The notes beneath the pieces are model-generated. The model had not been told where the DNA came from and searched no databases. It worked only from the letters and a program-made list of their open reading frames with translations. From Desulfotalea psychrophila LSv54 (GTDB lineage Bacteria; Desulfobacterota; Desulfobulbia; Desulfobulbales; Desulfocapsaceae): a stretch of DNA of 32,000 nt. The DNA is taken from assembly GCF_000025945.1 (NCBI RefSeq), contig NC_006138.1, positions 2,760,001-2,792,000 of the forward strand, given 5' to 3'. Below, one piece after another: positions 1 to 19,796 of the stretch (positions are counted from its first letter, which is position 1; each line of letters begins with the position of its first letter). The position numbers were made by a program, and so were the translations under genes.

Positions 1-1
1 T

Positions 2-704: not shown

Positions 705-3191
705 ATGAATAAACAAAAAGAATCCAGCACCAGGTCACAAAACAATAAAGCACCAGTAAAAAGAAAAACACACAGAAGAAAATCGCGTTCATCACGTCAC
801 AAAAGCCCATTTTTTTTATTTTTGACCCTGTTAATAGCTTTTGCAGGCATATCAACCGCTGTTTTTTTTATACGCCCTATAGATCTTTTTAGCCGATATA
901 TTGCACTCACTGACACGATAGAAATGGTTTTGACAGAAAAGTATAACATTCTGCAAACAAATGGTTTTTTAGCAAATACAGGAGATGATCTCAATGCAAA
1001 AAACTTTTTACATCGTTTACAAGAAAGGGGTTATACCAGGGTCAATCATCACCCAAAAATGGCTGGCACGTTTAACATTGAGGGAAATATTCTTTACCTC
1101 TACACCCATGCCAACCAAGGCCTAAGCTCTGGAAAACGCTATAAGTTCACTCTGCAAAAGTCCATACTTACATCTATCTCTTCAGCTGCTGACAGTACCC
1201 TTCTTGAATCCCTAGCCTTCCCCCCTTTAAATTTAACATACTTTATAGATTCGGTGTGGGAGATCAGAACCCCAGTCTCATATGATGAAATTCCAGAAGA
1301 TCTGATCAATGCAGTCATCGCCACAGAAGATCAGAGCTTCTTCTCTCACTATGGTGTGGACGTAAAAGGTATTATAAGAGCCACTCTATCAAATCTGCAA
1401 GCTGGCAGAGTTGTTCAAGGTGGGAGCACCATTACCCAGCAACTCGTCAAGGTGCTCAGTAAAAATGATGAACGAAGCCTGTCACGTAAGCTTCGTGAAG
1501 CCATTCTTGCCCTTATGGTTGATTATCAATATTCTAAACAAGAAATCCTCACTGCATATTTAAATAATGTCTATCTGGGGCATGCCTCACCATTCGAACT
1601 CCGTGGTATTGCAGCAGCTTCTGACTATATTCTTGGTAAGGATCTTAAAAATCTCAACCTCAAAGAATGTGCTATCATAGCGGGATTAATACGTTCACCA
1701 AATTCAGCATCCCCATTGCGTAACCACAGCTTTGCCGCCCAACGAACTCAGACTGTCTTAAACCAGATGGCAAATATGGGAGACAGTCTTGCTGCTGAAA
1801 CCCAAGTGAAAGACAAACTTATTCGTATTAAACATAAAAGCATTCTGCATAAAATGAGTTGGTATTTTGACCAGATTGCTAAAGAAATAAAATTACGAAA
1901 ACTTGATACCAGCGACCATACCAGACACCTTACAATCCAGACACCGCTTGATCCCTGGATGCAGATCAGTGCCACCAAAGTGCTCAAACAACAACTGAAC
2001 AAGCTCGACCCCGTTTCAGCAAACAAGCAAAAACCACTGCAGGGGGCAACAGTCATCCTGGATCCATATTCCGGCGGGGTCAAGGCACTGGTTGGCGGCC
2101 GCGATTACCTCAAAAACTCGTTTAATAGAGCTGTCGATGCACAAAGGCCGATGGGATCACTGATAAAACCATTCATCTATCTGACAGCTCTTGGGGGTAT
2201 AGATGCGGCAGGATTCATCACCCAGGCTGATACGGTAAATGATTCACCTATTACTGTTGGACAGGGAAAATCAAAGTGGAAACCGCATAACTACGATAAA
2301 AAATATTTAGGGAAAATTACAATCAGAAAGGCGTTGGCAGATTCTAGAAATATCCCCGCAGTCAAGATTGGACAGCGTATTGGCGTAGAAAAATTCCTTC
2401 CGGTTTTACGAAAGACAGGGATTACTGAAATACAGCAAGCTTATCCTTCAATTTTTCTCGGTGCTGTAGAAACAAGTCCCCTTAAAATTGCGGGCAGTTA
2501 CGCAACAATTGCAAATGGTGGAAACTTCACCAAACCACACCTTATAAATAAAATTTTCAAGGACGACACACTCATATATTTTCAGCAACCTGCTCAAGCA
2601 CTCTTTTCGCCAGCTACCTGTTATATCATGACAGATATGCTGCAAAACGCCCTCAACAATGGCACAGGAAAGAGAAGCAGAAAATATGGTTTCACCCATC
2701 TTGGAGCAGGTAAAACCGGAACGACAAATGCTGGACGAGATTCATGGTTTGCAGGTTATACCAATTCTCTGGTTACGGTCACGTGGGTAGGAAAAGATAA
2801 CAACAGCCCAACCAAATTAACTGGTTCTTCTGGTGCCCTTAAAATCTGGTCTTCCACAATGCAGGATATCCTTGGTCAAGGAAGAGATAAGGATTTTACG
2901 ACACCTACAGGCATTGAAACAGCCGAGATTAATTCAGCCACCGGGCAAAAAGCTAGCCTCTTTGACACCAACGTGGAATCAATGGCATTCATCCTTGGCA
3001 CTGCCCCTACCGCAATAGACAATAATGAATATATCCGCCAACAGTTCGTGGCCATTAAAAAGACCCTTCATCTAGAAAACTTAAAGAAAACACACAAAAC
3101 CCTGCTTAAAGGTGGGAGTGAAAATATTTCTGATTACACATCCTGGATGTCAGAGCAGTATGAAAAAACGAAAAATTGGCTCACCCAATGA
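705..3191 (+). CDS. Class A (bifunctional glycosyltransferase/transpeptidase) penicillin-binding protein
   Basis: AAGGGAG SD before the ATG. Basic N-terminus plus one TM. GT51 motifs ATEDQSFFSHYGVD, GGSTITQQLVK, RKLREA. Transpeptidase motifs SLIK (SxxK), SRN, KTGTT. Confidence 0.9.
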   Translation: MNKQKESSTRSQNNKAPVKRKTHRRKSRSSRHKSPFFLFLTLLIAFAGISTAVFFIRPIDLFSRYIALTDTIEMVLTEKYNILQTNGFLANTGDDLNAKNFLHRLQERGYTRVNHHPKMAGTFNIEGNILYLYTHANQGLSSGKRYKFTLQKSILTSISSAADSTLLESLAFPPLNLTYFIDSVWEIRTPVSYDEIPEDLINAVIATEDQSFFSHYGVDVKGIIRATLSNLQAGRVVQGGSTITQQLVKVLSKNDERSLSRKLREAILALMVDYQYSKQEILTAYLNNVYLGHASPFELRGIAAASDYILGKDLKNLNLKECAIIAGLIRSPNSASPLRNHSFAAQRTQTVLNQMANMGDSLAAETQVKDKLIRIKHKSILHKMSWYFDQIAKEIKLRKLDTSDHTRHLTIQTPLDPWMQISATKVLKQQLNKLDPVSANKQKPLQGATVILDPYSGGVKALVGGRDYLKNSFNRAVDAQRPMGSLIKPFIYLTALGGIDAAGFITQADTVNDSPITVGQGKSKWKPHNYDKKYLGKITIRKALADSRNIPAVKIGQRIGVEKFLPVLRKTGITEIQQAYPSIFLGAVETSPLKIAGSYATIANGGNFTKPHLINKIFKDDTLIYFQQPAQALFSPATCYIMTDMLQNALNNGTGKRSRKYGFTHLGAGKTGTTNAGRDSWFAGYTNSLVTVTWVGKDNNSPTKLTGSSGALKIWSSTMQDILGQGRDKDFTTPTGIETAEINSATGQKASLFDTNVESMAFILGTAPTAIDNNEYIRQQFVAIKKTLHLENLKKTHKTLLKGGSENISDYTSWMSEQYEKTKNWLTQ

Positions 3192-3429
3192 AGCTCTTTT
3201 ACCAGCAGAATATGTGGTTTGGACTTAAGAAGATGAAGCGCGCCCCTGGTTTTGTAGACATTCCTGAGTCATAAGAGACGACTGACAACTTTCGCAAAAA
3301 GTTGTTTCATCAGCATTTGCATAGCCGTAGCTTATACATATTTTGCACATATTTCTTACTCTTTGAATCTCTTTTTAAATTTTTACTGTTTTTCAAATAT
3401 CCTACGAATAGTACCTAATAGGCAAAAAG

Positions 3430-4236
3430 CTATTTACAGCCAAAGATTGACAGAAAAACAGAACGGAGATTATGGCAAGGCTGAACCAACACCGCACTTA
3501 CATTATCTTTTCCACCAGCATCAAGCGCCTTTCCAATAAGCTTTTGCACCACTTTTTTGCCAGTTTTCGCTAAATTTAAAACAGCAGTGATTTCATCTGC
3601 ACAAATCATTCCATACAGGCCATCACTACAGAGCAGAAATTGATCTCCTTGCTGAAGTTCATAAACATCAACAACTGTTCTTTTAAGACTATCTCGCTTA
3701 CCGCCAATTGCCTGACTGAGCACATGCCTCAGATGATGACGGACAGCCTCTTCAGCAGTCAATCGACCCATATTCACATAGCGTTGAACTTCAGTTTGAT
3801 CTTCAGTGAGTTGCTCAAGAATTTTGTTTCTTACTCTGTAAATACGGCTATCACCTACCTGAACCGTGTACGCTCTGTTCTTTCGTATAAGCAGAAGGGA
3901 GAGCGTTGAACCCATTCCAAATAAATGAGGTTTTTCTTTGCCCAGAGATAATATCTTTTTGTTTATTTTATAGACGATTTTCTCCAGCAAAAAGCAAATA
4001 TCTTTTTCCTCTACCGTCTCTTGGGCTTCAATATCTTTAATATGTTGAAAATATTGTTTTTCCACTTCAAAACAAATTATCCTACTTGCTGTTTCACCAG
4101 CAGCATAGCCACCCATTCCATCTGCTACCGCATATAATGTGCCCTGTTCAGGATCTTTATCAGCTATAACAAAACAATCTTCATTATTATCTCTGCTCAA
4201 TCCCTTATCTGTTAATGCATATGCTTTAAAATCCAT
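3430..4236 (-). CDS. PP2C-family Ser/Thr protein phosphatase
   Basis: MDFKAYALTDKGLSRDNNEDCF..ADGMGG..GGKDNVSAVLV are the PP2C metal-binding motifs. I prefer the ATG at 4236 (family-typical N-terminus) over the tracked GTG at 4317. The start is uncertain. Confidence 0.85.
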   Translation of the reverse strand: MDFKAYALTDKGLSRDNNEDCFVIADKDPEQGTLYAVADGMGGYAAGETASRIICFEVEKQYFQHIKDIEAQETVEEKDICFLLEKIVYKINKKILSLGKEKPHLFGMGSTLSLLLIRKNRAYTVQVGDSRIYRVRNKILEQLTEDQTEVQRYVNMGRLTAEEAVRHHLRHVLSQAIGGKRDSLKRTVVDVYELQQGDQFLLCSDGLYGMICADEITAVLNLAKTGKKVVQKLIGKALDAGGKDNVSAVLVQPCHNLRSVFLSIFGCK

Positions 4237-4517
4237 AATAAACAATTTGTTATGGTAATAATTGCTAAATATATGCTTCCCCAAAACCCGCAACTTCTGC
4301 CTGGTCAAGGTGGGCACGGATATAATCCATTAATCTTTCACGAGAATATGGTGAGTGGTGGCCTTACCTCCACCAGCGAATGCCTCAAGCCAGCTCAATA
4401 TTAGTCAGCAAAATATTCCTCCAACCACCATATAATCAGGAAATGGGATTGAGCTTACGACGGAGGCACAGCTACCACAGTTTTTTTTGCAAAACATTTA
4501 TATCAAGAGGACAAGAC

Positions 4518-5660
4518 TTACACTTCATGACCGAGCTCCTTATCTATTTTCACTAAGCCCCCCCTCACCTCAGCCATGGATCTTGGTCGATTTACGGGCT
4601 CTACATCGAGACATTTTTGTAACAGAACGTCCAATGCAGGCGGTACATGCTGGTTAAGATCGGCGAGAGCAGGATAGACACCTTGCGGAAAGTATTTCTT
4701 TGAAATCAGGCGATAGATGACCACGGCCAGAGAATATATATCTGTCCTGAAATCTACCAGGCTTGGATTGTTTCTTTGCTCTGGTGAAGAATAAAATTCA
4801 GTCGCCAACACACTGCCAACTCTGGTCAATTCATCTCTACCATCTGATTTACAAATTCCGAAATCACAAAGTTTTATTGAAATAAGGTTCTGTTCTGGTT
4901 CATATTTGTTCAACAAGAGGTTCGATAATTTCACATCGCGATGAATAACGCCCTGTTGATGGATTACCTCAAGTGCCTCAGCTGCCTGCATAGCCGTTTG
5001 CATGGCAAATTTAAGAGAAAAGTCACTCTCCTTAAACACCGTATTAACCCCCCCGAGCTCATGAAAATCCATGACAAGATATCCACCACCCATATGAAGA
5101 CCAGATTCATAAACCTTAATAATATGGGGATGACTAAATTTTTTTGTGGTTTCACACTCTCTTCTAAATCTCTCACATACAGTTTCAGATGAAAAAAACT
5201 CTTTTCGCAAAAATTTTATAGCCACGTCCCGAGAATCTTTTTTCCTCACAGCTCTAAAGACAACACTCATCCCTCCTTGACCGATCTGCTCACAGACCTC
5301 ATATTTACTGCTAAATTGCAATTCGCCCTGATCGCTATCATAACTCCTCTCCAGCGACTTAAGATCATTCCACAAAGCCTGCAGTTGAGCATCACCAACG
5401 GGGGGCATAGTCATTCTTAACAGATCAGCGCCAAGAAGCCTCTTGCCTCGTAATCTATTTTGTAATCGTTTAATTTCTGATGAAAAAAACGGGTTGGACG
5501 TATTGTTATAAATAGAGCTAAGTTCGCCAAGGAGATGGTTTGCATCTATCCGATTCGATCGAGCATCATCATGCAGAGATGAAAATATTTCAGTGGCCTT
5601 AGCTCGATCATTCGCTGCCACAGCAAGTTGTAACAGCGAAATCTTTTCGGTTATATTCAT
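4518..5660 (-). CDS. Hanks-type Ser/Thr protein kinase, soluble (about 110-aa helical N-terminal region, no TM or PASTA)
   Basis: Kinase motifs: G-loop GQGGMSVV, VAIK lysine, HRDVKLSNLLL catalytic loop, DFG, SPE. Confidence 0.9.
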   Translation of the reverse strand: MNITEKISLLQLAVAANDRAKATEIFSSLHDDARSNRIDANHLLGELSSIYNNTSNPFFSSEIKRLQNRLRGKRLLGADLLRMTMPPVGDAQLQALWNDLKSLERSYDSDQGELQFSSKYEVCEQIGQGGMSVVFRAVRKKDSRDVAIKFLRKEFFSSETVCERFRRECETTKKFSHPHIIKVYESGLHMGGGYLVMDFHELGGVNTVFKESDFSLKFAMQTAMQAAEALEVIHQQGVIHRDVKLSNLLLNKYEPEQNLISIKLCDFGICKSDGRDELTRVGSVLATEFYSSPEQRNNPSLVDFRTDIYSLAVVIYRLISKKYFPQGVYPALADLNQHVPPALDVLLQKCLDVEPVNRPRSMAEVRGGLVKIDKELGHEV

Positions 5661-5772
5661 AAGAGGGCTTTAAGAGAAAAAAATTAGGTTTTGCCAACAC
5701 AGACATCTTTTTTCAACAATTTGGACAAATTTTTTCTGCTGTATCAAATTCCTGCTTGCAGGTAGAACAGAG

Positions 5773-8037
5773 CTACACCTTCTCCCCACCACCCGGATTT
5801 ATTGCAACTCCAGCTGACGAGCCGGTCTGACTTGATGCGACATTTCCCATCTGCTGCACGGACCTATCAGCCATTCGTTCAACTCGATCAGCGACATGTC
5901 TTTCTGCTTGAGCAAGACCCTGTTGTTGGCCACCTACGCTTTCCATCCCCTGATTGAACATTCTTTCATTCCGATTAGCGGCATCTTTATGCACTGAGGA
6001 AAGTTGCTCCGTAGAACTCTTCATCTGAAAAATCATCCGTTCGTACAGATCTTTCACCTCGCCGCTCTGTGAATTCTTTGCTTTTTCTTCAAGGGCACGA
6101 CCAAGGGCGGCGGGATCGTTCATGGCAAGAATTTCTTCTGCGCTCATCCCTTTGAGTATTTCTGTTTGAGCAAGATCGCCTAAAATCCCGGCCTGACCAT
6201 CACCGGACACAGAAATGAGTTGAGCAGTAGACATGGTGGCAATATCAGCACGTTTTTCCCTATCAATCTGGCTAGAAAAACGCTTCTCTTCAAGGCGCAT
6301 TTTATGGTTCTCCACCTCTTCTTTCATACGCATTTCATATTTACCAAGTGCAAGTTCCTGCTCATGAAGATCATTCTCAAATTTATCGGCCCTCTTGATG
6401 GCCTTCATCTTTTCAAGATTTGATAAGCCTAGCTGTGATTTAAGACGTTTTTCCTCAAGTTCAAGTGTAGCAAACCCATGGCGAGCTTTTGCCTTATCGT
6501 GCACATTTTCTATGGTTAAATCGAGCTCGGCCTTCTTCATCTCAAGATCTTTAAGATGTTTCTGGACTTCTATCTCTTTTTCACCAAGTTCTTTCACCTC
6601 TTTTTTTGCAAGCTCAGCCTTTTCTCGCAACAATTCTACTTCAGCCTCTTGCTGAGATGTTTTGAGCCGTGAATTTTGTTTCACTTCAACGGCTACAAGT
6701 TCCTGCTTTATCTGTTCCACTTGTAATGAACCATCATTAATAATGGCAAGTTTATCCAGATCAAACTGCTGTTGTTCCTCAACTTTCCGAACAAGAAAGC
6801 TTCGATCCCGACCCTTATCCTCATCCTGCCAGCGCAGCTCATCAGCAAATATTTTTTTCTCTGCTGCATCAAGTACCTGATCACGATCAATCTCCAGCAT
6901 AAACTTACGTACTTCTTCATCAGTCTTAACCTGAGAGATATCTGCCTCTTTTATTTTCTGGTAGACCTCAAGCCTTTTCTCAATGATCTCGACACTCTTT
7001 TTCTTGAAATCAACATCCTGATGTTCTTTTTTCAACTCGAAATCATTATCCAGACCACGATCCTGCAATGAAACCGATTGAGTATCGACCTTTATACCCA
7101 TATCACTTTTAGCACCTACAATATCACCACGCTTGATTTCACGATGTAACTCTTCATTCTCCTGGTTTTGTTTAGCTACATGAAAGGCATCCTGCGCCTC
7201 TGCCTGCACTGCTCTTGTGCTTGTTTTACGCTCAGAATGAGCCTTTGCGCTGGTATCGAGTGTGCTATTGCCAATCTGTAAAGACCTCACCTGACCAAAG
7301 CCAAAACCACTTCTGGTAAAACTTTTTCTAAAATGTGATTCAATTCGAACGGCAAGCTCATTCTTAACCTTCAAATTTGTATCCAACTCATCAAATGAAT
7401 AGGCAACAAGCCCCTCCTGAATTGCATTACGAATCTCGCCAAGAAGCATGGCACGAAGTTCATGGTTTTTTAAAACACCCTGCTCCTTCATCACATTAAC
7501 AAAAAAGGCATTCGCATCTTCCAGTCTGATGACAATTTCTGTGCTGATACTGACAAAAATATTATCATTCGTTTTCATGTCGTCGATTTTAAACGGCAGA
7601 ACAATGTCACCCGCATCGACGAGGAGTGCAGAAAGATTTTTCTGCTTCTTGAAAAGCTTGTTCAAAAAGCCACCTTCCTGAATCGTATAGCGACCCGATT
7701 CTGCAGTTTCAACCAATCTACCATCTTCAAAAAAAAGGGCTTTTGTTCCGTGTCGTACCTCAAAACCCTTACTGCCACTTACAAGATGTGTTGCCGAAAC
7801 TTTGGCCGCAAAATCATCATCACCACGAATCCAAGCGACAACATCACTCTCAACCGTGGCACTGGTTCGCATATCATATCCACATTGACCACAAAAATTA
7901 CCGGAAGGCACATCTGCACCACACTTTGGGCAGGCATAATTAACACCAGTTGATTTGCCACAATAACCACAAAAGATGGCACCTGGTTTAATGTTCTGCC
8001 CACAGTGAAAACATAAACTTTGATTGATATTGCTCAT
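5773..8037 (-). CDS. Double zinc-ribbon / SPFH (Band 7_1, YdjI-like) / long coiled-coil protein
   Basis: N-terminus CFHCG..CGYCG and CPKCG..CGQCG. Residues about 65-265 follow the SPFH/Band_7_1 pattern (VVAWIRGDD..GTKALFFEDGRLVE..GRYTI..). About 450 aa of E/K/Q-rich heptad-like sequence follows. GGAG sits upstream of the ATG. The SPFH call is by eye only. Confidence 0.7.
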   Translation of the reverse strand: MSNINQSLCFHCGQNIKPGAIFCGYCGKSTGVNYACPKCGADVPSGNFCGQCGYDMRTSATVESDVVAWIRGDDDFAAKVSATHLVSGSKGFEVRHGTKALFFEDGRLVETAESGRYTIQEGGFLNKLFKKQKNLSALLVDAGDIVLPFKIDDMKTNDNIFVSISTEIVIRLEDANAFFVNVMKEQGVLKNHELRAMLLGEIRNAIQEGLVAYSFDELDTNLKVKNELAVRIESHFRKSFTRSGFGFGQVRSLQIGNSTLDTSAKAHSERKTSTRAVQAEAQDAFHVAKQNQENEELHREIKRGDIVGAKSDMGIKVDTQSVSLQDRGLDNDFELKKEHQDVDFKKKSVEIIEKRLEVYQKIKEADISQVKTDEEVRKFMLEIDRDQVLDAAEKKIFADELRWQDEDKGRDRSFLVRKVEEQQQFDLDKLAIINDGSLQVEQIKQELVAVEVKQNSRLKTSQQEAEVELLREKAELAKKEVKELGEKEIEVQKHLKDLEMKKAELDLTIENVHDKAKARHGFATLELEEKRLKSQLGLSNLEKMKAIKRADKFENDLHEQELALGKYEMRMKEEVENHKMRLEEKRFSSQIDREKRADIATMSTAQLISVSGDGQAGILGDLAQTEILKGMSAEEILAMNDPAALGRALEEKAKNSQSGEVKDLYERMIFQMKSSTEQLSSVHKDAANRNERMFNQGMESVGGQQQGLAQAERHVADRVERMADRSVQQMGNVASSQTGSSAGVAINPGGGEKV

Positions 8038-8079
8038 ATTTTTTATATCTCCAGTTCTGGTTACAAAGATACTGCCTAA

Positions 8080-9031
8080 TTATGCCCGGCCAGCAACATT
8101 GTTATATGATTTATTTCGACAATTTTTCAATTCATTGGCAACTTCATTAAGACTTACCTCTGCCGAGGAATCGTTTCCTCTATTAACGTTTTTCAAAAGC
8201 TTTTCGCTCTGAACTTGCAGGTTACGCACAAGTCCCTGCATAAATTTATTATGTTTTTCAATTTTTCTTTTATCCTGTGAAGCAACTCCATCTTTGTGTA
8301 AACCTGGGTGTTGCTCGATGGAAAACAGTAGACTTTCAAGTTCCTCCTGTTGGTCCTTCACTTTTACAGCAAAGCTGATCTTCTTATTTTCGACCAAGAC
8401 GTCATGCACTCTTTTAAGATTATCTCTGGTTTTTTTAAGCTCCATGGCGATGGAAAGCTGAGCTGTACCATTATGCTCAACTGCCTTTGAAACCATGCGT
8501 CGTTGTTTTGCCCTGTTCATCGTAAAAAATAATATGACAAGTAAAAGAACACCAAACAAAACAGCAAGATACTTTATAACAGGCAACAAATAATACGCAT
8601 TAAAACTTCTTGAAAATGCCACCTGTTCTGTAGCCGTGTTTTCCATTGCAAGAAAGACTTCTGCATATGCAAAAACCGGGTAGTCAACAATCTTTATAAC
8701 TTTACCATCTACTATCCAGCCACCTTCTCTACCTGCGCTGTCTCAGGCTGGATGTGTTCGGCAACAGTGTAATTAGTGGGCAAGGCAATAGATGTGCTAA
8801 GCATACTTATGAAGTCACCCTGGTCATCGACAATAGAATCACCCACAATATCTGGTAAACAGGGTCATCAGGCATCTCCATCACTACCTGTCTGGCAATA
8901 TCTGCATACACTATCTGAATAGGATCACTTCCCGGTTGCGGAAACGAGCCTGAGCTGTCTCCATAAACCAGAGAGACAGACAAGGACATGATGGCGATAC
9001 ATAACAAAATCTGCTGATAGAGTAATCTCAT
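8080..9031 (-). pseudogene. Signal-peptide / periplasmic / TM / cytoplasmic coiled-coil protein interrupted by two 1-nt frameshifts (tracked as ORFs 8807..9031 and 8080..8646)
   Basis: ORF 8807..9031 starts with a signal peptide (MRLLYQQILLCIAIMSLSVSLVYG). An intermediate frame is open 8712-8864 (..PDIVGDSIVDDQGDFISMLSTSIALPTNYTVAEHIQPETAQVEKVAG). The frame of 8080..8646 is open upstream of its Met (WIVDGKVIKIVDYPVFAYAEVFLA-MENT..), and that Met has no SD. Confidence 0.5.
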
Positions 9032-9206
9032 GAAATCTCCCCAGATAAAGAATTTTTTAATATGTTTTTCATTAAATTAAAGTGGTTAAGCTAAAACAGC
9101 CTGCTGTACAGCTTCAAGCTGTATACTAGACGAGCTTACAATATCTTTTCTGCATTTTTTATTTTAAACCTGCAAACCTTGCCTCCACCCCACCGTCTCA
9201 CCGGCC

Positions 9207-10685
9207 CTAAACTGAGAGAACAAGACGAAAGCCCACACGGCTGTTGCGGGCATCAGAAGCGATCCCAAAACGGAACGCAGAACGCAAAGCCCACGAACCG
9301 GCGCCGTCCCAATTACAACCACGAAGGACGCGATTAGATCCTAATGAAGGCCCCCTGGGGTTATTGCCAGGACTACTCTGATAATAGTATTTATCAAACC
9401 AGTCCTGGCACCACTCCCATACATTTCCAGACATATCATACAGACCTAAACCATTTGCCTGTTTCTTACCAACCGGATGGGTTGAACAGTTACTATTTCC
9501 ACCATACCAAGCAACCGCCTCAATATCATTACCCCCCGCATACAGCTCTCTCTTACCGCCACTGCGGGCTGCATATTCCCACTCTGCCTCGGTGGGCAGT
9601 CTGAATCTCATTCCACTTTGTTTATAAAGCTGTTCTATAAACGCCTGGGCATCATGCCAAGAAACAGTCTCCACTGGATAGGTGTCAGCTTTCTTAAAAC
9701 GTGAAGGATTGATCCCCATCACCTCTTCATACTGGGACTGAATAACAGGGTATTTACCTAGCCAAAAGCCATCCAGTTCCACCTCATGTACCGGTTTTTC
9801 GCAGTCAGCCCCTTGATCAAACTGATCTCCCATCTCAAAGCTACCAGCCGGTACCCAGATCATCTCGATATTGGTCATTGATTCTGTGTAATTGCGACCT
9901 GGAAGTGGCCATTTTCTGCTGGTTTCCAAAAGAGCTTGCAACTCATGCACAGTTCCCAAATCAAAGAGGTTACTACCTCCTGCCACTAATCTCTGCAGTT
10001 CTGCTATGACCTTTTCTGCACCTTCAATATCCAGAGCTTTAAGAGCCAGACGGCACTGTTTTTCATTTTTTTCCCAGCTATCCTGCAAAGCCAGTTTTTC
10101 TTTCTTCTCAGCCACGCACCTCACGCAGATAAACTCTGTCGGATCCTGATGCTCATGGCAGAGATGGTCACGACCGCAATTCGTGCATTTGAAGGTCTGG
10201 GCCAACTGGTTACGTTTACCGCAGAGTTCACATAAGACTGTGGATTCGGGCACTGGTTCGGGATGAGTTTTCGCCTGCTCCTGCTCCATCTTCTTGACAC
10301 AGAGCAGACAGACAAAATGTTCCCGATCAAGATGCTCCAGGCAGTAATGGTCTACCCCACATTCACGGCATTTGAAGGTGTCTTTTTCTTCGTTCAGTCG
10401 GCCACAGAGAGGGCATCTCTGCATGGATGCGCTGACAGGGGTCTGTTGTTGGCCACTAAGATTGACATTGATGGCACTGACCGATGCCTGACTAGAACCA
10501 CCATTATTGTTAATCTTGGTGGTACTCAATATATTTCCATCCAGATAGCCAATATCACCCATGCCAAGACCAGAGGATATATCTTGCTCGTTCAGCTCTT
10601 CGCCCACAGAACCACATACACCACAGAATTGTTGACCCTCTGCTATTATTTGACCACACTGTTTATTTGAACATCGCAAGGCCAC
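9207..10685 (-). CDS. Zinc-ribbon / tandem Cys-rich module / FGE-sulfatase (SUMF1-like) domain protein
   Basis: GTG start with a GAGAGAGGA SD. N-terminal CSNKQCG..CGVCG. Two 39-aa seven-Cys modules (aa 91-129 and 152-190). The C-terminal 220 aa carry FGE-sulfatase-type motifs (WVPAGSFEMG, VSWHDAQAF, RLPTEAEWEYAAR, GNVWEWCQDW, RGCNW, GFRLV). Confidence 0.85.
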   Translation of the reverse strand: MALRCSNKQCGQIIAEGQQFCGVCGSVGEELNEQDISSGLGMGDIGYLDGNILSTTKINNNGGSSQASVSAINVNLSGQQQTPVSASMQRCPLCGRLNEEKDTFKCRECGVDHYCLEHLDREHFVCLLCVKKMEQEQAKTHPEPVPESTVLCELCGKRNQLAQTFKCTNCGRDHLCHEHQDPTEFICVRCVAEKKEKLALQDSWEKNEKQCRLALKALDIEGAEKVIAELQRLVAGGSNLFDLGTVHELQALLETSRKWPLPGRNYTESMTNIEMIWVPAGSFEMGDQFDQGADCEKPVHEVELDGFWLGKYPVIQSQYEEVMGINPSRFKKADTYPVETVSWHDAQAFIEQLYKQSGMRFRLPTEAEWEYAARSGGKRELYAGGNDIEAVAWYGGNSNCSTHPVGKKQANGLGLYDMSGNVWEWCQDWFDKYYYQSSPGNNPRGPSLGSNRVLRGCNWDGAGSWALRSAFRFGIASDARNSRVGFRLVLSV

Positions 10686-10769
10686 TTATCGTCCTCTCTC
10701 AAATATTTTTGTAGTTACCAATACCCACCATCGACCTTTTATATCTGTCAGTTGGACACTATTTTTCAA

Positions 10770-12494
10770 TCACTTCATATTGAGCACATCTCTCATAGCT
10801 CGTGCGGCAATTGGCCCCGCCACCTTGGCACCCAGGCCACCATGCTCGACTATAACGGCCACTGCATATCTTGGCTTATCCGCAGGGGCAAGACCTACAA
10901 ACCAGGAGTGATCTGCTCTGCCTCTACCTGTTTCTGCTGTACCCGTTTTACCAAGCAGTTGGGTCGTTTCACCTTTAGGGAGGATAGAGCTCAAAATATA
11001 CTTGCCTCTGTACTTATAGAGCTTAGGAATTGAGTAACCAGTACCAGTCTGCATAACCTTCTTCATCATCTCAACAAGCATTTTGGCCGTATCCTTCCTA
11101 CAGCTTCTCCCCACCTCGCCCTTAGTATCTGGCCATTGATTAATAAGACCTACACTTGCATCATGGTCAGAGAAATAGGCTCCCCTCACCAGTCTTGGTT
11201 TCATCATCACTCCATCATTGCCGATAGCTGCAATGGTGAGAGCCATTTGCAGAGGCGTTGCCAGGACCACATTTTGGCCAATGGCACCCTGGGCCACCAG
11301 TTTGGGATTATTGTTAAAATTTAATGCTGTCCACTCCCTACCACTGTTCACAGCTGGATACCCTGCAAAGGCAAGCGACTGCAGACTGGTACTCTTTTTT
11401 CCTGCTGGTAACCAAGATCGATTAAAGCCAAAACGGTTTGCCTCTTTTAAAAGAAGAGGGCCAAGCCTCACCCCAATATCACTAAAAAAGACATTGCAGG
11501 AGACAGACACCGCCGTCTGCAGGCTCACCCAACCATGACCTCGTTTATTATGATCACTAATACCCAGTGTTTTATGACGTCCCCTACATCTCATGCCCCA
11601 TTTTATGTCAAAATCAGTTCGATCAGCCCAAGCGGCTGCTGTGACCAGCTTAAAGGTAGAGCCCGGCGGGTAGCGTCGTTCAAGCGTACGATTGACAAAG
11701 CCACTCCTATATCCTTTTTTAACTTCATCTTCCCAATACTTACCCGCTGGTTGACTTGGATCGAATGCCGGGGTTGAGACAGCGGCAAGCATTTCACCAC
11801 TATTAATATCAAGCACAACCACAGCACCGGTTTTATGTGCCATTGATTGATAAATTTTTTGTTGAACCGCTCCATCAATTGTAAGCTTTATATCTGTCGT
11901 TTTTTGTCGGCCACTTGCCAATCGATAAAAGGATGAAAAGGCGGAAGAGTGCTGCCGACCGGCAAGCCAGCTATTGAGTGTTTTTTCAAGGCCCTTTAAG
12001 CCATAAATGGGATGAGCCACCCCAAGAAGTGGTGCCGTAGCTAAACCCAAGGGATACTTTCTGGTAATGTTCCCCACCATACCCTGTATGGATTCGGCAA
12101 GAACAAGACCATTTCTATCAAGGATGCGGCCTCTATCCTCAAGGTTTTTACCTTGAGTTATACGATGGTTTGCAACCCTGAACCCATCACCGTCAATTTT
12201 GAATTTGTTGTTTTTATAGGAGAAAAAACGCGTTCTTTTACCAATAAACCGGGTAAGACGTTTACCGTACATCTGCTCTAATGCAGCCTGGTCAATGAAT
12301 ACCTCACCATTTTTTTCTGTAATAGCATCTGTTTGTTCAGCTATATAGATCTTATTAATTATTTTCTGCTCGATATATGGTGTATTGGTAAGATCGTCCC
12401 CCTGAATAATCACCCGAAAAAAAACCCCAAAGAGTAAGCCAAGAACAAGCAAAGCAAAAAAGATGAGCAGGGTGCTGATTCTTTTTCTATACAC
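10770..12494 (-). CDS. Class B penicillin-binding protein (PBP2/PbpA-like transpeptidase)
   Basis: N-terminal TM. STFK (SxxK), SCN (SxN), KTGTA. Start overlaps the upstream gene by 8 nt. Confidence 0.9.
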   Translation of the reverse strand: MYRKRISTLLIFFALLVLGLLFGVFFRVIIQGDDLTNTPYIEQKIINKIYIAEQTDAITEKNGEVFIDQAALEQMYGKRLTRFIGKRTRFFSYKNNKFKIDGDGFRVANHRITQGKNLEDRGRILDRNGLVLAESIQGMVGNITRKYPLGLATAPLLGVAHPIYGLKGLEKTLNSWLAGRQHSSAFSSFYRLASGRQKTTDIKLTIDGAVQQKIYQSMAHKTGAVVVLDINSGEMLAAVSTPAFDPSQPAGKYWEDEVKKGYRSGFVNRTLERRYPPGSTFKLVTAAAWADRTDFDIKWGMRCRGRHKTLGISDHNKRGHGWVSLQTAVSVSCNVFFSDIGVRLGPLLLKEANRFGFNRSWLPAGKKSTSLQSLAFAGYPAVNSGREWTALNFNNNPKLVAQGAIGQNVVLATPLQMALTIAAIGNDGVMMKPRLVRGAYFSDHDASVGLINQWPDTKGEVGRSCRKDTAKMLVEMMKKVMQTGTGYSIPKLYKYRGKYILSSILPKGETTQLLGKTGTAETGRGRADHSWFVGLAPADKPRYAVAVIVEHGGLGAKVAGPIAARAMRDVLNMK

Positions 12495-13122
12495 TTTGCA
12501 GCTCCTCTCTGGCTAATCGTGGGAGAAAATTCTCTTCAAGCCAACGAGACACCTCTACTTCAAGCAGGTACACTCTCAAGCCTCTTTGTTTTAAAATCCA
12601 GTTTATACTCTCACTGTTTTTGCACCCGCAGAGCAGTTTCTGAACAAAACCATATGTTTTCGCTATATACTGAACAAGCGTTGAGACCTGCGCAGAGGCA
12701 AGACTTTTGCTGGTTCTATCGAAGGGTGTAAACGACAAATCCAGGAATTGAAGCGGAAGTAGTCCATCACGAACCAGCCCCTGCTCTAATGCTTGTAAAC
12801 ACGCTCTGGGAAGTTTTTGAGCCAGATATACAGCAAATCCTTCATCGAGCCCGACAGGAAGATTAGCGCCGGTATACTCTCTCATCATAAAGTGTACACA
12901 TTCATGACAGACCATATTGGCAAGGGCCGTATCGTTTGGCACCTTTTCTTCTGTTACCGCCATCCTTATAATGCGCCAACTATCGACACCAACCCAAGTA
13001 AGCAGCTCACCTTTATTAATTATGGCGTGGCTATCTATCCACTGTCTCCAATCAGGGTAGACCTCTATTATAAGTGAAGCTGTAAAGCCCTCCATCAACT
13101 CAATATTACAATCACAGGTCAT
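12487..13122 (-). CDS. HExxH metallopeptidase-like protein (peptidase MA-like)
   Basis: HECVHFMMRE (HExxH) followed by GLDEGFAVYLAQ, the third-ligand Glu pattern of gluzincin/Peptidase_MA_2-type proteins. ATG overlaps the SEDS stop (TAATG). Stop overlaps the bPBP start. Confidence 0.6.
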   Translation of the reverse strand: MTCDCNIELMEGFTASLIIEVYPDWRQWIDSHAIINKGELLTWVGVDSWRIIRMAVTEEKVPNDTALANMVCHECVHFMMREYTGANLPVGLDEGFAVYLAQKLPRACLQALEQGLVRDGLLPLQFLDLSFTPFDRTSKSLASAQVSTLVQYIAKTYGFVQKLLCGCKNSESINWILKQRGLRVYLLEVEVSRWLEENFLPRLAREELQSV

Positions 13123-14687
13123 TATTCTTTGCCCTCACACAGAGTAGTAAGGACTTCTTTTGACATGCTGATGGAAGAGATCTGCATAATAAGGGCCAGA
13201 CTAATAAAGTTCATAATCAACGAGCTACCACCAAAACTGATGAAGGGCAGAGTGATGCCTGTCAAAGGCAGCAGAGCAAGATTGCCACCGACAATCACCA
13301 TGGTCTGTAACAACCACAGGCAGCCAAGCCCGGTGCCAAGTAACTGTAGATAGGGTTCATTGCACCTCTGAGCTGATCGCACTGAAACATAGGCAAGTGA
13401 TGCAAAGCAGACAAGCACTGAAAGCGCGCCAAAAAAGCCCCACTCTTCAACAATGGCCGCAAAGTTAAAATCAGACCAGACCACTGGAATCTTATAGGCC
13501 ATTCCTGCCCCCGGCCCCACTCCAAACCAGCCTCCACTCGCCGCAGCCCAAAGCGATTCTGCAATGTTCTGCGAATAAAGAAATGGTTCAAACCACATAT
13601 CAAGACGTGTTCTCACCATGGAAGGATAGCCAAAGCTATAGCTCAAGGCTCCAGCTGCGACCATAATGATGATGCCGCTCAGGGCCGAAATCCCTGAGCC
13701 GCTACCAAGATAAAAAAGCAAAAGAAAAAGAGTAAACAACAAGGCTGTGGGGCCGAGATCTTTCTGCAAAAAAATCGGAAGAAGGACGAGAATCCACATA
13801 ATAAAATAGGGGGCAAGGTATCTCCCCCGAGGCAATCCCAGGAGATGGCGGCCTCGCTCCATGAAACCACCTTCAAACCTGAAATAACTCACCATAAAAA
13901 AGAGCGCCATTATCTTTACAAGCTCAACGCTTTGGAAATTCATCACCCCAAGGTTTATGGAGAGCCTCCTACCGTGCATCTCGGTGCCAACAACTGCGGT
14001 AAGACAGATGAGCACAATAGAACCAAAGGCATATATGTAGCGAAAGCGGGTTAGTCGTTCAATTCGCTGAGGAGTCAAGTAAAGCAGAGCTACCATGAAA
14101 GCAATCAGAGAAAACAAAAAGGAGATATACTGATTCCAAAAAAGAAAGGTGAAACCTGCTTTATGGCTCTTAATGGCAATATCCGGTCCCAACCGATAAA
14201 GGAGGACAAGACCAGTGCCAACAAGCATGGTAACCATTGGCAGCAGAGGTGAGGCACGTAGAGGTATTTTAATATTTAAAAACAGATGGATCAGCCAAAT
14301 AGGCACAAGATATAGCCCCACGGCCAGAAGCGACTGAGAGAAGACGCTGATACCGGGCAGGAAGGGAAAGGTATTCCAATGCTCACCGCCATGGAGCAGC
14401 CTGCCCTGTCCTGCCAGCACGAAAAGAGCCAACAGAATAATAGAAAACCCCATAAGCGAGATGGCTTCGTTCCTTCGAATTGCAGCAGCTTCTGGTTTTT
14501 CACCCTCGGTCCATAAATAAAGTGTAGCACACAACCAGCTTAAGAGAGCTACGATCACTATTACATGACAGGTAAAATGAAAATTATGACCAATAAACAA
14601 AGCAGAACCAATACGGTACAGCAACAGACCAGCGAGACACAGTAAAACAACCTTAAGCAACAATACATTTTTCCTGCTCACAGGCAC
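13122..14687 (-). CDS. SEDS-family peptidoglycan polymerase (RodA/FtsW-like), 521 aa with an extended N-terminal TM region
   Basis: Polytopic membrane protein with SEDS signatures GGWFGVGPGAG and LPLTGITLPFISFGGSSL. GTG start overlaps the FHA gene by 10 nt. Confidence 0.9.
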   Translation of the reverse strand: MPVSRKNVLLLKVVLLCLAGLLLYRIGSALFIGHNFHFTCHVIVIVALLSWLCATLYLWTEGEKPEAAAIRRNEAISLMGFSIILLALFVLAGQGRLLHGGEHWNTFPFLPGISVFSQSLLAVGLYLVPIWLIHLFLNIKIPLRASPLLPMVTMLVGTGLVLLYRLGPDIAIKSHKAGFTFLFWNQYISFLFSLIAFMVALLYLTPQRIERLTRFRYIYAFGSIVLICLTAVVGTEMHGRRLSINLGVMNFQSVELVKIMALFFMVSYFRFEGGFMERGRHLLGLPRGRYLAPYFIMWILVLLPIFLQKDLGPTALLFTLFLLLFYLGSGSGISALSGIIIMVAAGALSYSFGYPSMVRTRLDMWFEPFLYSQNIAESLWAAASGGWFGVGPGAGMAYKIPVVWSDFNFAAIVEEWGFFGALSVLVCFASLAYVSVRSAQRCNEPYLQLLGTGLGCLWLLQTMVIVGGNLALLPLTGITLPFISFGGSSLIMNFISLALIMQISSISMSKEVLTTLCEGKE

Positions 14688-15367
14688 ACCTCGATTTTGC
14701 TGGCTCCCAGTTGTAGGACATCACCATTATTTAAGACATAAACACCTATTATTCTGTGTTGATTAATGAGTGTACCGTTACCTGAAGCAAGATCTTCAAT
14801 TGTTGCGCATGATTCATCTATAGTCAGTTGACAATGTTTCCTGGAAACAAGATGATCTTCCTGACCAATCTGAACATCCGCCTCCGCACCTCTTCCGATG
14901 ATATATGTACCCGTTCCAAGCTCAATTGGTTCAGGCTGCTTCTCTGAAATTATATGAAAGGCAACACAACTCTTTGCAGGTTTTTGGGTAAAGAGAGGAT
15001 CGTGCTCCACAACTTCTTCCAGTTCCTCCACAACAGGTCTTGAACAGCTTGATTTAATTAGGGCTTTTTCACCAAGTCTTCCGCCATCTGCAATGGTAAC
15101 TTGAGGAGGAGATCGCAAAAATGAATATTTTTGGGAAGAGGCAAGGCCGATGAGTAGAGTAGAGAGCTCTTTTTCTAAAGAGGGTAAGAATGGTTTATGC
15201 TCTTTAAATTCGGCGGAATCGAACAGTATCTCATATCTGTCAGATATCACGGTAATATCTCTGAATACTTTCTTGCTCTTTGACATCTCACCTGTCAAAA
15301 GAGTTACAAGATCACACCCACCCATTCTTTTCTTAAAAAGAAACACATTTTTAAGCAGGTTTAGCAT
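14678..15367 (-). CDS. FHA-domain protein (FhaB-like position)
   Basis: C-terminal FHA pattern YIIGRGAEADVQIGQEDHLVSRKHCQL..DLASGNGTLIN..L.NGDVLQLG. Confidence 0.85.
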   Translation of the reverse strand: MLNLLKNVFLFKKRMGGCDLVTLLTGEMSKSKKVFRDITVISDRYEILFDSAEFKEHKPFLPSLEKELSTLLIGLASSQKYSFLRSPPQVTIADGGRLGEKALIKSSCSRPVVEELEEVVEHDPLFTQKPAKSCVAFHIISEKQPEPIELGTGTYIIGRGAEADVQIGQEDHLVSRKHCQLTIDESCATIEDLASGNGTLINQHRIIGVYVLNNGDVLQLGASKIEVCL

Positions 15368-16626: not shown

Positions 16627-17029
16627 AGCAAAATTCTCTCTCTATCTGCGATAACATGCAGCCCGGTGCTTTTTGAAAACCCGATTGTTTTACGGTTGAG
16701 TCGCTTCAGCCTCGTTCGCAAATTCAGATTCTGTCGTTCGATTCATGAACACAGCTTTCTCACAGCTTTTCAGAAGGTAATTCAGCACGATAGGTTTCAA
16801 GCTGTCCATGCAGAAAAGCCTTATATCGAAAGATGGCAACAACCACAGAAGTGACTTGCATGCTTCGGTATCCTGCCGAAAGCATGGGCGATGATCGGCC
16901 AGCGTAGTTTCCATGCACCCCACCTTAAGAACCCTTGCCATGCCGCCTTAGCATCAGTGCTACCACAAAATCGACACTACCTTTACTATGACCATACCAG
17001 AACCTTAAAAAAAATGACTATACCATCAC
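16627..17029 (-). mobile_element. Truncated group II intron, 5' (domain I) fragment, copy A
   Basis: The minus strand starts GTGATGG and contains, in order, TTTTAAGGTTCTGG, TCGATATAAGG and ACAGAATCTGAATTTGCG. From memory these resemble Ll.LtrB domain I strings (GTTTAAGGTACTAC, CAGATATAAGG, GAGAATCTGAATTTACC). No domain V/VI and no RT ORF. Bounded by half-palindrome motifs at 16602-16627 and 17032-17051. Confidence 0.5.
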
Positions 17030-17195
17030 TTCAACGTTTTGGCATCACGCCTAACAATATGGCAACACGAGCAAAATTTGCCTTAAGTGGGAAATCAGAG
17101 AAGCGGAAACTACTTTAGCTGTTTTGCTTGAAACACTTATTAAAAAATATAGAAGGCTTAGTTACTGGGACAGTAAATCTATCATTTATTTTATA

Positions 17196-17738
17196 CTATT
17201 CGAACAACCAATAACGAGTAGGGTTGTCCGGGCATTGGCCGAGACCGCATTCGGCAAAAGTCAACACGACCAAAGTTAAACTCAGTGTTATGGCAAAAAT
17301 AGTAATATAGCGAGTAGCCTTATCACGTTGCTGAACAATCATCCCCAAAGTGATAGTTCTCTCTTGAAGTAACATTATAGCTGAAAATACTAAGGAACAG
17401 AAAAAGGCTATACCGGCCCAGGTATACATATGGTAGCCCCAAATTGGAGCACCATAGTTGCCTGTCCCGGGCACTATATGAAGTAGTATTTGACGAACGG
17501 AACCAGCCATGCCAAATAGGGCACTTATAAGAATTATGCCGTAGTGGGAAGTTCTCATTCCAAAATTGAGATTTAGGACAGCTCCGATTAGCATACATAC
17601 AAACGCTAAACGTTGGAGCATGCAAAGTGGGCAAGGCAATTCGCCAAGGAATAACTGAATTACAAGAGAGGAAATCAGTATCCCTCCTACCACAAAAATG
17701 AACAGGAAATTCAAGAATCTAGCGATAGATATTGGCAT
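17196..17738 (-). CDS. DsbB-family disulfide bond formation protein
   Basis: Four-TM protein with ELPCPLCMLQR (CxxC followed by QR at the end of TM1) and a C-terminal Cys pair (AECGLGQC). GGGAG SD 6 nt before the ATG at 17738; the tracked start 17783 is less likely. Confidence 0.7.
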   Translation of the reverse strand: MPISIARFLNFLFIFVVGGILISSLVIQLFLGELPCPLCMLQRLAFVCMLIGAVLNLNFGMRTSHYGIILISALFGMAGSVRQILLHIVPGTGNYGAPIWGYHMYTWAGIAFFCSLVFSAIMLLQERTITLGMIVQQRDKATRYITIFAITLSLTLVVLTFAECGLGQCPDNPTRYWLFE

Positions 17739-17757
17739 TATATCTCCCGAGATAAGA

Positions 17758-17913
17758 TTATAAATTGATATTGATAGAATCACTCATATGATGAACCAAC
17801 CACATAATTCCCAATGCCAACGTTACAAATGATGTCAATATTGCCGGTTGTCTCAAACCTTTATAAATAAGACCGAAAACTATGACTGTTAGAGTAAAAA
17901 GAATGCCCGTCAT
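17758..17913 (-). CDS. Small (51 aa) two-TM membrane peptide just upstream of the DsbB-family gene
   Basis: GGAGG SD 6 nt before the ATG. MTGILFTLTVIVFGLIYKGLRQPAILTSFVTLALGIMWLVHHMSDSININL. Below the ORF-track size cutoff. Stops 19 nt before the dsbB-like start. Confidence 0.35.
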   Translation of the reverse strand: MTGILFTLTVIVFGLIYKGLRQPAILTSFVTLALGIMWLVHHMSDSININL

Positions 17914-17980
17914 ATGTTCACCTCCAAAAAAAATTAATTTTCATAGTGTTTCAAAATAGGGTCGTGTTGGCAAAATTAAA

Positions 17981-18284: not shown

Positions 18285-18576
18285 TTCAACGTTTTGGCAT
18301 CACGACCGTATTTTGGCCTCTTTTGACATTTGAGTAGGTAATTGAATGCCATTCCTTCCAGAATCAACCTGAAAACATCCTACAGAGGAGGGTCTGATTG
18401 AAGCATTATTTCGTGGGTGCCCATCCTCCCACATGGCAGCATTCTTTTATACCGATGGTTCCAATATCACAGGTTAGGCACGCAAGAATCGAACAAAAGG
18501 GATAATTTTCCCCCCAACGAATATTAGCAGTATCACTGCAAGAATAATTCCCATAAAAACATTTGCTCCATTCAAC

Positions 18577-19792: not shown

Positions 19793-19796
19793 GGGC

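Follow-up and report, generated by a model that had tools for sequence, protein, structure and literature searches.

A cluster of minus-strand genes in the sulfate reducer Desulfotalea psychrophila LSv54 probably (we put the chance at about 60%) encodes a dedicated peptidoglycan synthase, a SEDS glycosyltransferase together with a class B penicillin-binding protein (bPBP), which is switched by Ser/Thr phosphorylation and constitutes a lineage-specific Desulfobacterota variant of the FhaA/PP2C/SEDS/PbpA/Hanks-kinase locus of Actinomycetota and Chloroflexota. The cluster occupies positions 3430 to 15367 of the 32,000-nt stretch of genomic DNA analysed here, which we call the window, and whose SEDS protein is 100% identical to a protein of D. 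psychrophila LSv54 encoded on the 3.52-Mb chromosome. Judged by homology, it is the sulfate reducers' counterpart, rare and in part decayed, of the kinase-controlled wall-synthase locus of actinobacteria. SEDS-bPBP pairs are core wall polymerases and antibiotic targets, and to our knowledge the way in which they are switched on is understood in few model systems only. Control by a Ser/Thr kinase and FhaA is usually regarded as a Gram-positive, actinobacterial trait; the cluster suggests that this control logic also operates in Gram-negative sulfate reducers, with a lectin-fold sensor resembling the formylglycine-generating enzyme (FGE) in place of PASTA domains. The genes of the cluster, in the direction of transcription, are the following.

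14678-15367, minus strand: FhaA-type adaptor, 229 aa, with FhaA_N and FHA domains (Pfam FHA, E 1.1e-16; FhaA_N, E 3.5e-6)
13122-14687, minus strand: SEDS peptidoglycan glycosyltransferase, 521 aa (Pfam FTSW_RODA_SPOVE, E 4.4e-50)
12487-13122, minus strand: small cytoplasmic gluzincin, 211 aa, Peptidase_MA_2 family (PF13485, 31.4 bits), with HECVH as its HExxH motif
10770-12494, minus strand: class B PBP of the PbpA type, 574 aa, with an N-terminal transmembrane (TM) helix, PBP_dimer_2 and Transpeptidase domains
9207-10685, minus strand: zinc-ribbon/FGE-like cytoplasmic protein, 492 aa, no TM segment (Pfam FGE-sulfatase, E 2e-52)
8080-9031, minus strand: disrupted CsgG-like gene for a periplasmic domain, TM helix and cytoplasmic coiled coil (tblastn, three-frame translation)
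5713-8037, minus strand: double zinc ribbon/SPFH protein with a long charged helical region (Pfam DZR); the 754-aa open reading frame (ORF) ends at a TAG at 5773-5775
4518-5660, minus strand: Ser/Thr kinase of the Hanks type, soluble, 380 aa, of which 115 make up an N-terminal domain (Pfam Pkinase)
4253-4470, minus strand: pseudogene remnant, the last ~75 codons (last fifth) of a zinc-ribbon/Peptidase_U49-like gene (tblastn of a 367-aa protein from a relative, L088)
3430-4236, minus strand: soluble PP2C phosphatase (Pfam PP2C_2, E 1.6e-15); its ORF (295 aa) runs up to 4317

The layout of the cluster agrees with an earlier, sequence-only reading of the window, which had placed nine minus-strand ORFs between 15367 and 3430; all nine were found at the coordinates given, in the order FhaA, SEDS, gluzincin, bPBP and FGE-like protein, with kinase and PP2C at the far end. 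The three junctions that had been put forward as translationally coupled are exact in the sequence: the stop of FhaA and the start of SEDS overlap by 10 nt (GTGCCTGTGA), SEDS and the gluzincin meet in TAATG, and the gluzincin overlaps the start of the bPBP by 8 nt (GTGTATAG). Tight FhaA-SEDS and gluzincin-bPBP junctions are also present in the gene tables of relatives. Seven core ORFs, namely FhaA, SEDS, gluzincin, bPBP, FGE-like protein, kinase and PP2C, are uninterrupted. Pfam finds PP2C, Pkinase, DZR zinc ribbons, FGE-sulfatase, Transpeptidase with PBP_dimer_2, FTSW_RODA_SPOVE, and FHA with FhaA_N among the ORFs of the window, so that the domain calls made beforehand pass, except for SPFH, which is below threshold in the window protein; the Peptidase_MA_2 match of the HExxH protein falls just under its cutoff. 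By hydropathy no hydrophobic segment occurs in the kinase, PP2C or gluzincin, nor in either zinc-ribbon protein, as had been anticipated for the two zinc-ribbon proteins, described as cytoplasmic. Scans with Rfam and for tRNA genes found nothing in the window, and a scan for promoters and terminators was uninformative on operon structure, because it gave no more sites in the window than in shuffled sequence.

By its sequence relationships, the core of the cluster is homologous to the actinobacterial fhaA-pstP-rodA-pbpA-pkn locus and not to the proteobacterial mrdAB or ftsWI pairs, since the nearest SEDS proteins outside its own clade sit in that locus, the FhaA_N and PBP_dimer_2 domains are present, and the bPBP finds PbpA-like proteins in the PDB (4mnr, 4jbf and 3un7 are its best solved relatives). 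The domains and the relatives of SEDS and bPBP thus bear out the proposal that FHA, SEDS, bPBP, kinase and PP2C make up an actinobacterial-type gene set. The SEDS protein carries an N-terminal extension of ~140 aa with about four extra hydrophobic helices by hydropathy, and outside its own clade it matches proteins of Chloroflexota, Limnocylindria and Actinomycetota at ~205-218 bits.

One could also take the two enzymes for the organism's regular housekeeping pair of the elongasome (RodA-PBP2) or the divisome (FtsW-FtsI), with signalling genes next door by chance, an explanation that we hold to be highly improbable. It would fit the retention of all catalytic motifs, SDF (D406) and DLGP in invariant columns of SEDS and STFK, SCN and KTG in the bPBP behind its single N-terminal TM helix, and the best NCBIfam names, which are ftsW and pbp2_mrdA; yet the scores lie far under the equivalog cutoffs, with 181.8 bits against 337.5 for ftsW, 138.5 against 336.7 for rodA_shape and 236.7 against 455 for pbp2_mrdA (the FtsI subfamily gives 39 against 737). 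While SEDS reaches ~210 bits with the SEDS proteins of Chloroflexota and Actinomycetota clusters, it scores only 96 with P. aeruginosa FtsW, 66 with RodA and 46 with E. coli MrdB among solved structures. There are no mreBCD or dcw genes in the window, and no mur, mra or ftsQAZ genes among its domain-scanned ORFs. The SEDS clade is moreover rare, comprising ~30-40 clusters among 5.8 billion proteins at 39-66% identity, mostly from metagenome-assembled genomes (MAGs) of Desulfobacterales/Thermodesulfobacteriota and from unassigned metagenome contigs, and the segment that carries the pair is bracketed by repeats in the manner of an insertion.

The signalling genes keep their catalytic and binding motifs. 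The kinase has the motifs VAIK, HRDVKLSN, DFG and SPE, and the FHA domain of FhaA retains the phosphothreonine-binding residues GR, SRKH and NG. No PASTA match (Pfam) and no hydrophobic segment were found in the kinase, and the NCBIfam match to PknB_PASTA_kin covers the kinase domain only, at 175 bits against a cutoff of 450; the description of a soluble kinase that has neither TM segment nor PASTA is therefore correct. A 380-aa kinase beside an SPFH gene in the relative L088 is 42-45% identical from end to end, N-terminal domain included. The phosphatase has the metal-binding motifs ED, DGMGG, DGL and GGKDN and scores 208 bits against a cutoff of 230 with the NCBIfam model Stp1/IreP; its start is probably the ATG at 4236 (MDFKAYALTDKG), because the Peptidase_U49-like remnant overlaps the 5' extension of the ORF. 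The plural FHA proteins of the sequence-only reading have to be reduced to one inside 3430-15367, as the second protein has FhaA_N alone and lies outside, at 18577-19350. That protein is 41-46% identical to the products of L001 3007-3963 and L002 2318-3289, and these orthologues sit upstream of the cluster in both loci.

Compared with the actinobacterial fhaA-fhaB-pstP-rodA-pbpA-pknA-pknB locus, which has counterparts in Chloroflexota and Coriobacteriia, the window shares an adaptor with FhaA_N and FHA domains, SEDS, a PbpA-type bPBP, a Hanks kinase and a PP2C, all on one strand. It differs in that its kinase is soluble and free of TM and PASTA segments; in that its PP2C, likewise soluble, stands at the far end, whereas the actinobacterial PP2C stands between FHA and SEDS; in that FhaB is missing; in that the gluzincin is inserted between SEDS and bPBP; in the additional FGE-like, CsgG-like and zinc-ribbon/SPFH genes; and in its host, a Gram-negative sulfate reducer. 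In mycobacteria, FhaA, PknB and PstP have been linked to wall synthesis (PMC11898655, PMC6554272). A likeness of another kind exists to SpoVE-SpoVD and to the SEDS-bPBP/FtsW-RodA paralogues, as in Listeria and Enterococcus (PMC6686043, PMC12724132), which are likewise SEDS-bPBP pairs that fit neither the RodA-PBP2 nor the FtsW-FtsI models and stand under dedicated regulation, but the SEDS protein of the window is not orthologous to SpoVE (115 against 449 bits), and its control would be exerted by kinase, FHA and PP2C and, in relatives, an ECF-type (extracytoplasmic function) sigma factor.

The second line of evidence is the recurrence of the gene content around the SEDS-bPBP pair. Six-frame ORFs of the relatives were searched with hidden Markov models (HMMs) and phmmer, and nine independent Desulfo-type loci enter our counts: the window, L001/L089 (one 148-kb contig), L002/L003, L004, L005, L006/L007, L088, L090 (a Syntrophus MAG) and L091. 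As references we used 80 loci from a scan of GTDB species genomes with the SEDS-clade alignment, nearly all of them from Actinomycetota, Coriobacteriia and Chloroflexota and with SEDS at 30-38% identity; in most of these, tblastn finds the canonical order FHA-PP2C-SEDS-bPBP-kinase. The same GTDB scan with a single SEDS sequence, unlike that with the alignment, gave no match. The gluzincin is encoded in all nine Desulfo-type loci, the FGE-like domain in seven (mostly as the C-terminal domain of a kinase), and the pair of CsgG-like and zinc-ribbon/SPFH genes in six (the window, L002, L006, L088, L089 and, rearranged, L090), the contigs of L004 and L005 ending too early to tell. Gluzincin, FGE-like, CsgG-like and SPFH genes were found by tblastn and HMM in 0 of the 80 Actinomycetota/Chloroflexota loci, so that all four extras are absent from every canonical locus. 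The notion that the extra genes are not co-conserved with the SEDS-bPBP pair thus fails, because they recur with it in relatives. Literature searches found no published account of this Desulfobacterota variant, in line with the sequence-only reading, which knew of no description of the extended composition.

Within these loci some arrangements are kept closely. FhaA is directly upstream of SEDS in six of the seven SEDS-carrying relatives (L001, L002, L004, L005, L006 and L091), and the gluzincin directly upstream of the bPBP wherever contigs show both genes, except in L090, where it is a few genes away, and in L091. Only in L090 and L091 do SEDS and bPBP adjoin each other directly; in the window and most relatives the gluzincin lies between them. 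Genes for an ECF-like sigma-70 factor and a zf-HC2 anti-sigma-like protein stand directly upstream of FhaA/SEDS in five loci (L001, L002, L005, L006 and L090; for example L002:7272-8386), and this pair is missing from the window and from L004. In four loci the bPBP and CsgG-like genes are separated by one for a FlgT_N-like periplasmic protein, which the window lacks. L004, the closest relative, shows a streamlined order like that of the window, with no scaffold genes between FGE and kinase. When metagenomes were scanned with the gluzincin alignment, a single locus came up, which extends the L001 contig; word-indexed homologue searches, too insensitive for the purpose, gave one match for the SPFH protein's N-terminal region and only the query itself for the gluzincin.

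The gluzincin is the most constant of the additional components. The HExxH protein of the sequence-only reading holds up: HECVH is present, the residues H73, E74 and H77 and the downstream Glu ligand E94 are invariant in 16 sequences, and PF13485 is matched by every one of the 16 family members, with 31.4 bits for the window protein against a cutoff of 32.4. Its AlphaFold2 model has a predicted local distance difference test (pLDDT) score of 85.7, and the weak top matches in a fold search with it are all M1 gluzincins/aminopeptidases. The subfamily is rare, with 11 cluster representatives at E <= 1e-10 among 1.84 billion. In L091, a 522-aa FhaA_N-TPR-Peptidase_MA_2 fusion (L091:5627-7195) directly follows the SEDS-bPBP pair; because the two are fused in this protein, the gluzincin is tied to the FhaA_N module. 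Because it is found in every relative and is translationally coupled to the two enzymes, we regard it as a candidate accessory factor of SEDS-bPBP pairs, which would be a new one. We know of no study so far of the three recurrent partners.

The FGE-like protein consists of one zinc ribbon, two Cys-rich cross-brace-like modules and the FGE-like domain. The Pfam assignment to FGE-sulfatase is solid, but the identity with the enzyme does not stand: although the strong match is shared with FGE/SUMF1, alignment to S. coelicolor FGE (2q17/6muj) puts G and A at the two positions of the catalytic cysteines, and the best PDB match is the Treponema denticola variable protein TvpA (2y3c), with S. coelicolor FGE at 95 bits. 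TvpA is a non-enzymatic lectin-fold variable binding protein. By these sequence comparisons the domain is a TvpA-like C-type-lectin-fold binding domain rather than the enzyme FGE; we read it as a binding module because the catalytic cysteines are absent and the best match is TvpA. An orthologue in L004 is 54% identical, and in L001, L002, L005 and L006 the domain is fused to kinases, some of these fusions having a TM helix and PEGA before FGE, others being soluble. Residues 88-195 of the 492-aa protein form two tandem Cys/His-rich modules, CxxC-x11-CxxC-x4-C-x2-H-x6-7-CxxC, which are conserved in the orthologue from L004 and have no match in Pfam.

In L006 the fusion gene is accompanied by the parts of a diversity-generating retroelement (DGR). 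The order there (3268-8015) is a kinase-TM-PEGA-FGE gene, an HRDC-domain gene and an RVT_1 reverse-transcriptase gene, and the whole adjoins the FhaA/SEDS cluster. A variable region at 6118-6254, which is the last 137 nt of the kinase gene, and a template repeat at 7879-8015, just after the reverse-transcriptase gene, are 82% identical, with 23 of 24 mismatches at template adenines. In its sequence pattern this is the signature of a DGR that targets the FGE-like C-terminus of the kinase. The FGE-like protein of the window is a homologue of this diversified scaffold, and in comparison with its L004 orthologue the divergence is far greatest in the stretch that corresponds to the variable region; no reverse-transcriptase gene and no repeat of the 3' end of the FGE-like gene occur within the window. 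At the very start of the L004 contig, positions 2-38 match L004:7622-7658, the 3' end of the zinc-ribbon/FGE gene, at 89% over the first 37 nt; the contig end may here have cut off a template repeat and left only its edge, but so short a match allows no judgement. A bacterial kinase atlas lists kinases that carry an FGE-sulfatase domain at the C-terminus, the 'Proteo1' architecture (bioRxiv 10.1101/2025.01.12.632604), and DGR targeting of regulatory proteins, kinases included, has been described in cyanobacteria (PMC7517822). The relatives share the kinase-FGE fusion with these, whereas in the window the FGE domain is split off, carried on zinc-ribbon modules, and there is no DGR. Literature searches found no published link of kinase-FGE fusions or DGR-targeted regulators to a SEDS-bPBP synthase. 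That one relative has a receptor kinase diversified by a DGR suggests that a variable ligand receptor can be linked to wall synthesis.

From these elements a mechanism can be proposed for the phosphorylation-switched synthase. The SEDS protein would polymerise lipid II and the PbpA-type bPBP would cross-link the product, while the gluzincin, made in fixed proportion with both through translational coupling, would be a member of the same complex. The soluble Hanks kinase would phosphorylate threonines on proteins of the cluster; the FHA domain of FhaA, itself coupled to SEDS, would read these phosphothreonines and tune or position the synthase, and the PP2C would reset the phosphorylation state. 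The FGE-like lectin-fold domain, fused to the kinase in relatives and carried by a separate zinc-ribbon protein in the window, would serve as the ligand-binding input of the kinase in place of PASTA, and the zinc-ribbon/SPFH coiled-coil protein with its CsgG-like membrane partner would form a membrane scaffold. D. psychrophila is cultivable, which opens the cluster to standard genetics and phosphoproteomics.

One may go further and see in the cluster an as yet undescribed Desulfobacterota system of envelope surveillance and repair, in which a lectin-fold receptor, hypervariable through a DGR in some members, acts through the kinase/FhaA/PP2C relay on a private SEDS-PbpA-gluzincin synthase with a zinc-ribbon SPFH scaffold and an ECF sigma factor of its own. 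This is a tentative proposal, against which we lean. If it were true, it would provide a direct link between programmable ligand recognition and wall synthesis, and the gluzincin would be a new obligatory partner of the SEDS-bPBP pair. A related reading, in which the variable lectin-fold receptor senses a foreign or damage ligand as part of an envelope-surveillance or conflict system and the kinase/FHA/PP2C relay triggers local wall synthesis or remodelling, seems to us decidedly unlikely. The diversified receptor adjoining the cluster in L006 and the divergence of the variable-region equivalent would suit it, as would the caspase-FGE, DO-GTPase2-FGE, PEGA, TPR and Sel1 genes and the ECF sigma/anti-sigma genes in the neighbourhoods of relatives and the caspase-HEAT gene that the window has at 25653-26945; conflict systems typically contain FGS, caspase and PEGA domains (PMC7159879). 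However, neither a reverse transcriptase nor a template repeat is found in the window, the caspase and GTPase genes are associated in few loci only, and both the FGE-like protein of the window and several kinase-FGE fusions are cytoplasmic, so that they cannot sense external ligands directly. PADLOC matches nothing in the window beyond generic models for kinase (PD-T4-6, mad6), PP2C and caspase, and we rejected a known anti-phage defence system as an identity for the cluster.

The accessory genes of the synthase cluster are where the window departs from its relatives. What had been described as a separate frameshifted gene (8712-9031) and a membrane coiled-coil gene (8080-8646) is, by tblastn and translation, one broken ancestral gene of ~335 aa, the CsgG-like gene, which is read in frame -2 (9031 to ~8840), frame -1 (8846-8712) and frame -3 (8733-8080) and has thus suffered two frameshifts. 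Proteins of 340 aa from L088, 331 aa from L006 and 216 aa from L002 align to 9031-8080 as tblastn queries; the orthologues, of ~335 aa, have a signal peptide, a CsgG-like periplasmic domain with Pfam CsgG matches, a TM helix and a cytoplasmic coiled coil. The 188-aa ORF at 8080-8646 is the 3' part of this gene, beginning just before the TM helix, the only one that it encodes. In the SPFH gene, the conserved C-terminal zinc ribbon (CxxC...CxxC), LCSTCKQEFDTAEKICPNC, is still encoded in frame past the TAG, at 5772-5713, and a 419-aa orthologue from L088 aligns straight through the TAG into it; programmed readthrough or pyrrolysine at this codon was rejected as unsupported, a nonsense mutation or sequencing error being simpler. 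The Peptidase_U49-like remnant, between kinase and PP2C, has a W-to-stop change and a frameshift; the gene is intact in L088. As a result, the earlier count of nine intact ORFs and one frameshifted gene is right as to the ORFs and wrong as to their intactness.

The SPFH assignment is an indirect one, made through orthology, in that three orthologues at 33-48% identity pass Band_7 over the aligned region (42.7, 30.5 and 32.4 bits against 23.6), and not for the window protein by itself. A profile search of the zinc-ribbon/SPFH region against PDB sequences gave zinc-ribbon matches only. With SPFH/flotillin scaffolds the protein shares the Band_7/SPFH domain as judged from its orthologues, the long charged helical region and an adjoining gene for a membrane partner; it differs in its N-terminal and ancestral C-terminal zinc ribbons, in having no membrane anchor of its own, and in that the window copy is below the Pfam threshold and truncated by the TAG.

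Taken by their sequences, the genes of the catalytic core are intact in D. psychrophila and those of the accessory scaffold are in decay, though errors of sequencing may account for the frameshifts and the TAG. LSv54 may get by with a reduced version, as its closest relative L004 seems to do, or it may be losing the system. That the cluster is a decaying, horizontally acquired island, which came in as one block beside xthA and no longer works as a system in LSv54, we consider unlikely, even though several observations favour it: the two frameshifts in the CsgG-like gene, the TAG in the SPFH gene, the Peptidase_U49-like remnant, the absence of the relatives' sigma/anti-sigma pair and FlgT_N-like gene, and the position of the ~19.4-kb segment, from the class A PBP to the second FhaA_N gene, between two directly repeated copies of the xthA 3' end, of which the right one is degenerate and has an IS481-like transposase gene alongside. 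Against such an account stand the seven uninterrupted core ORFs, which keep their catalytic residues and overlapping start and stop signals, a base composition that is the same as in the flanks, and the apparent frameshifts themselves, if they are sequencing errors. As L004 shows the same streamlined order, the accessory loss may be tolerated rather than terminal.

Several points weigh against our reading of the cluster as a phosphorylation-switched synthase. With several accessory genes broken, the module may have lost part or all of its activity in LSv54. The relatives are few, come mostly from short metagenome contigs and are of uncertain taxonomy; among the nine loci, PP2C is present in only two, the window and L006/L007, and it is the gene content that recurs, while gene order varies and the order of nine to ten genes seen in the window does not recur. 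The SPFH domain of the window protein reaches only E 0.018 and 15.1 bits with Band_7_1 against a gathering threshold of 24, an AlphaFold2 model of the zinc-ribbon/SPFH region from two sequences is too poor to judge the fold (pLDDT 45), and the fold search with the gluzincin model gave no significant solved relative. The 'extra' status of the SEDS-bPBP pair follows from family scores and from the affiliation of its relatives. Finally, we observed domain identities, catalytic motifs, gene coupling, co-conservation and gene lesions directly, and every protein-protein and phospho-regulatory step we infer. Of the self-contained, phospho-regulated wall-synthesis module that the sequence-only reading had sketched, the homologous core and the co-conserved extras survive, and the class A PBP and the intact accessories do not.

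Around the cluster, the window contains the following further features.

1-210, plus strand: intact 3' end of an xthA-like (exonuclease III) gene, the left direct-repeat copy (repeat comparison)
705-3191, plus strand: class A PBP, 828 aa, converging on the PP2C gene
18577-19350, minus strand: second, FhaA_N-only protein, 257 aa (Pfam FhaA_N, E 7.1e-12)
19588-19794, plus strand: degenerate right copy of the xthA 3' end, 89-91% identical, with an in-frame stop and a 3-nt indel
20078-21181: IS481-like (rve/DDE) transposase gene, right after the degenerate xthA copy
25653-26945, minus strand: caspase-like (Peptidase_C14) protein, 430 aa, with C-terminal HEAT-like repeats

The class A PBP does converge on the end of the cluster, as had been pointed out, but it is no part of the conserved set; we rejected it as a component of the system, as no relative has a counterpart nearby. 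The protein has a weak UB2H match (E 8.7e-4, below threshold), like PBP1B-type enzymes. The ~19.4 kb between the xthA copies hold the class A PBP gene, the whole cluster, a DsbB-like gene and the second FhaA_N-only gene, and by the arrangement of its repeats the bracketed segment looks like an old insertion beside xthA, with a base composition not distinct from that of the flanks. A 44-nt fragment of the 3' end of the transposase gene recurs at 28039-28082. The DsbB-like gene (17196-17783) is flanked by ~335-nt repeats of 86-89% identity at 16714-17049 and 17966-18304, the two direct copies each containing a short ORF (83 and 89 aa), and 4-5 kb away, at 22597-22662, there is a partial copy in inverted orientation; these repeats may be a small mobile or repeated element. 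In L001 a caspase-FGE protein is encoded just upstream of the cluster, and with its caspase part the caspase-HEAT protein of the window shares 36% identity.

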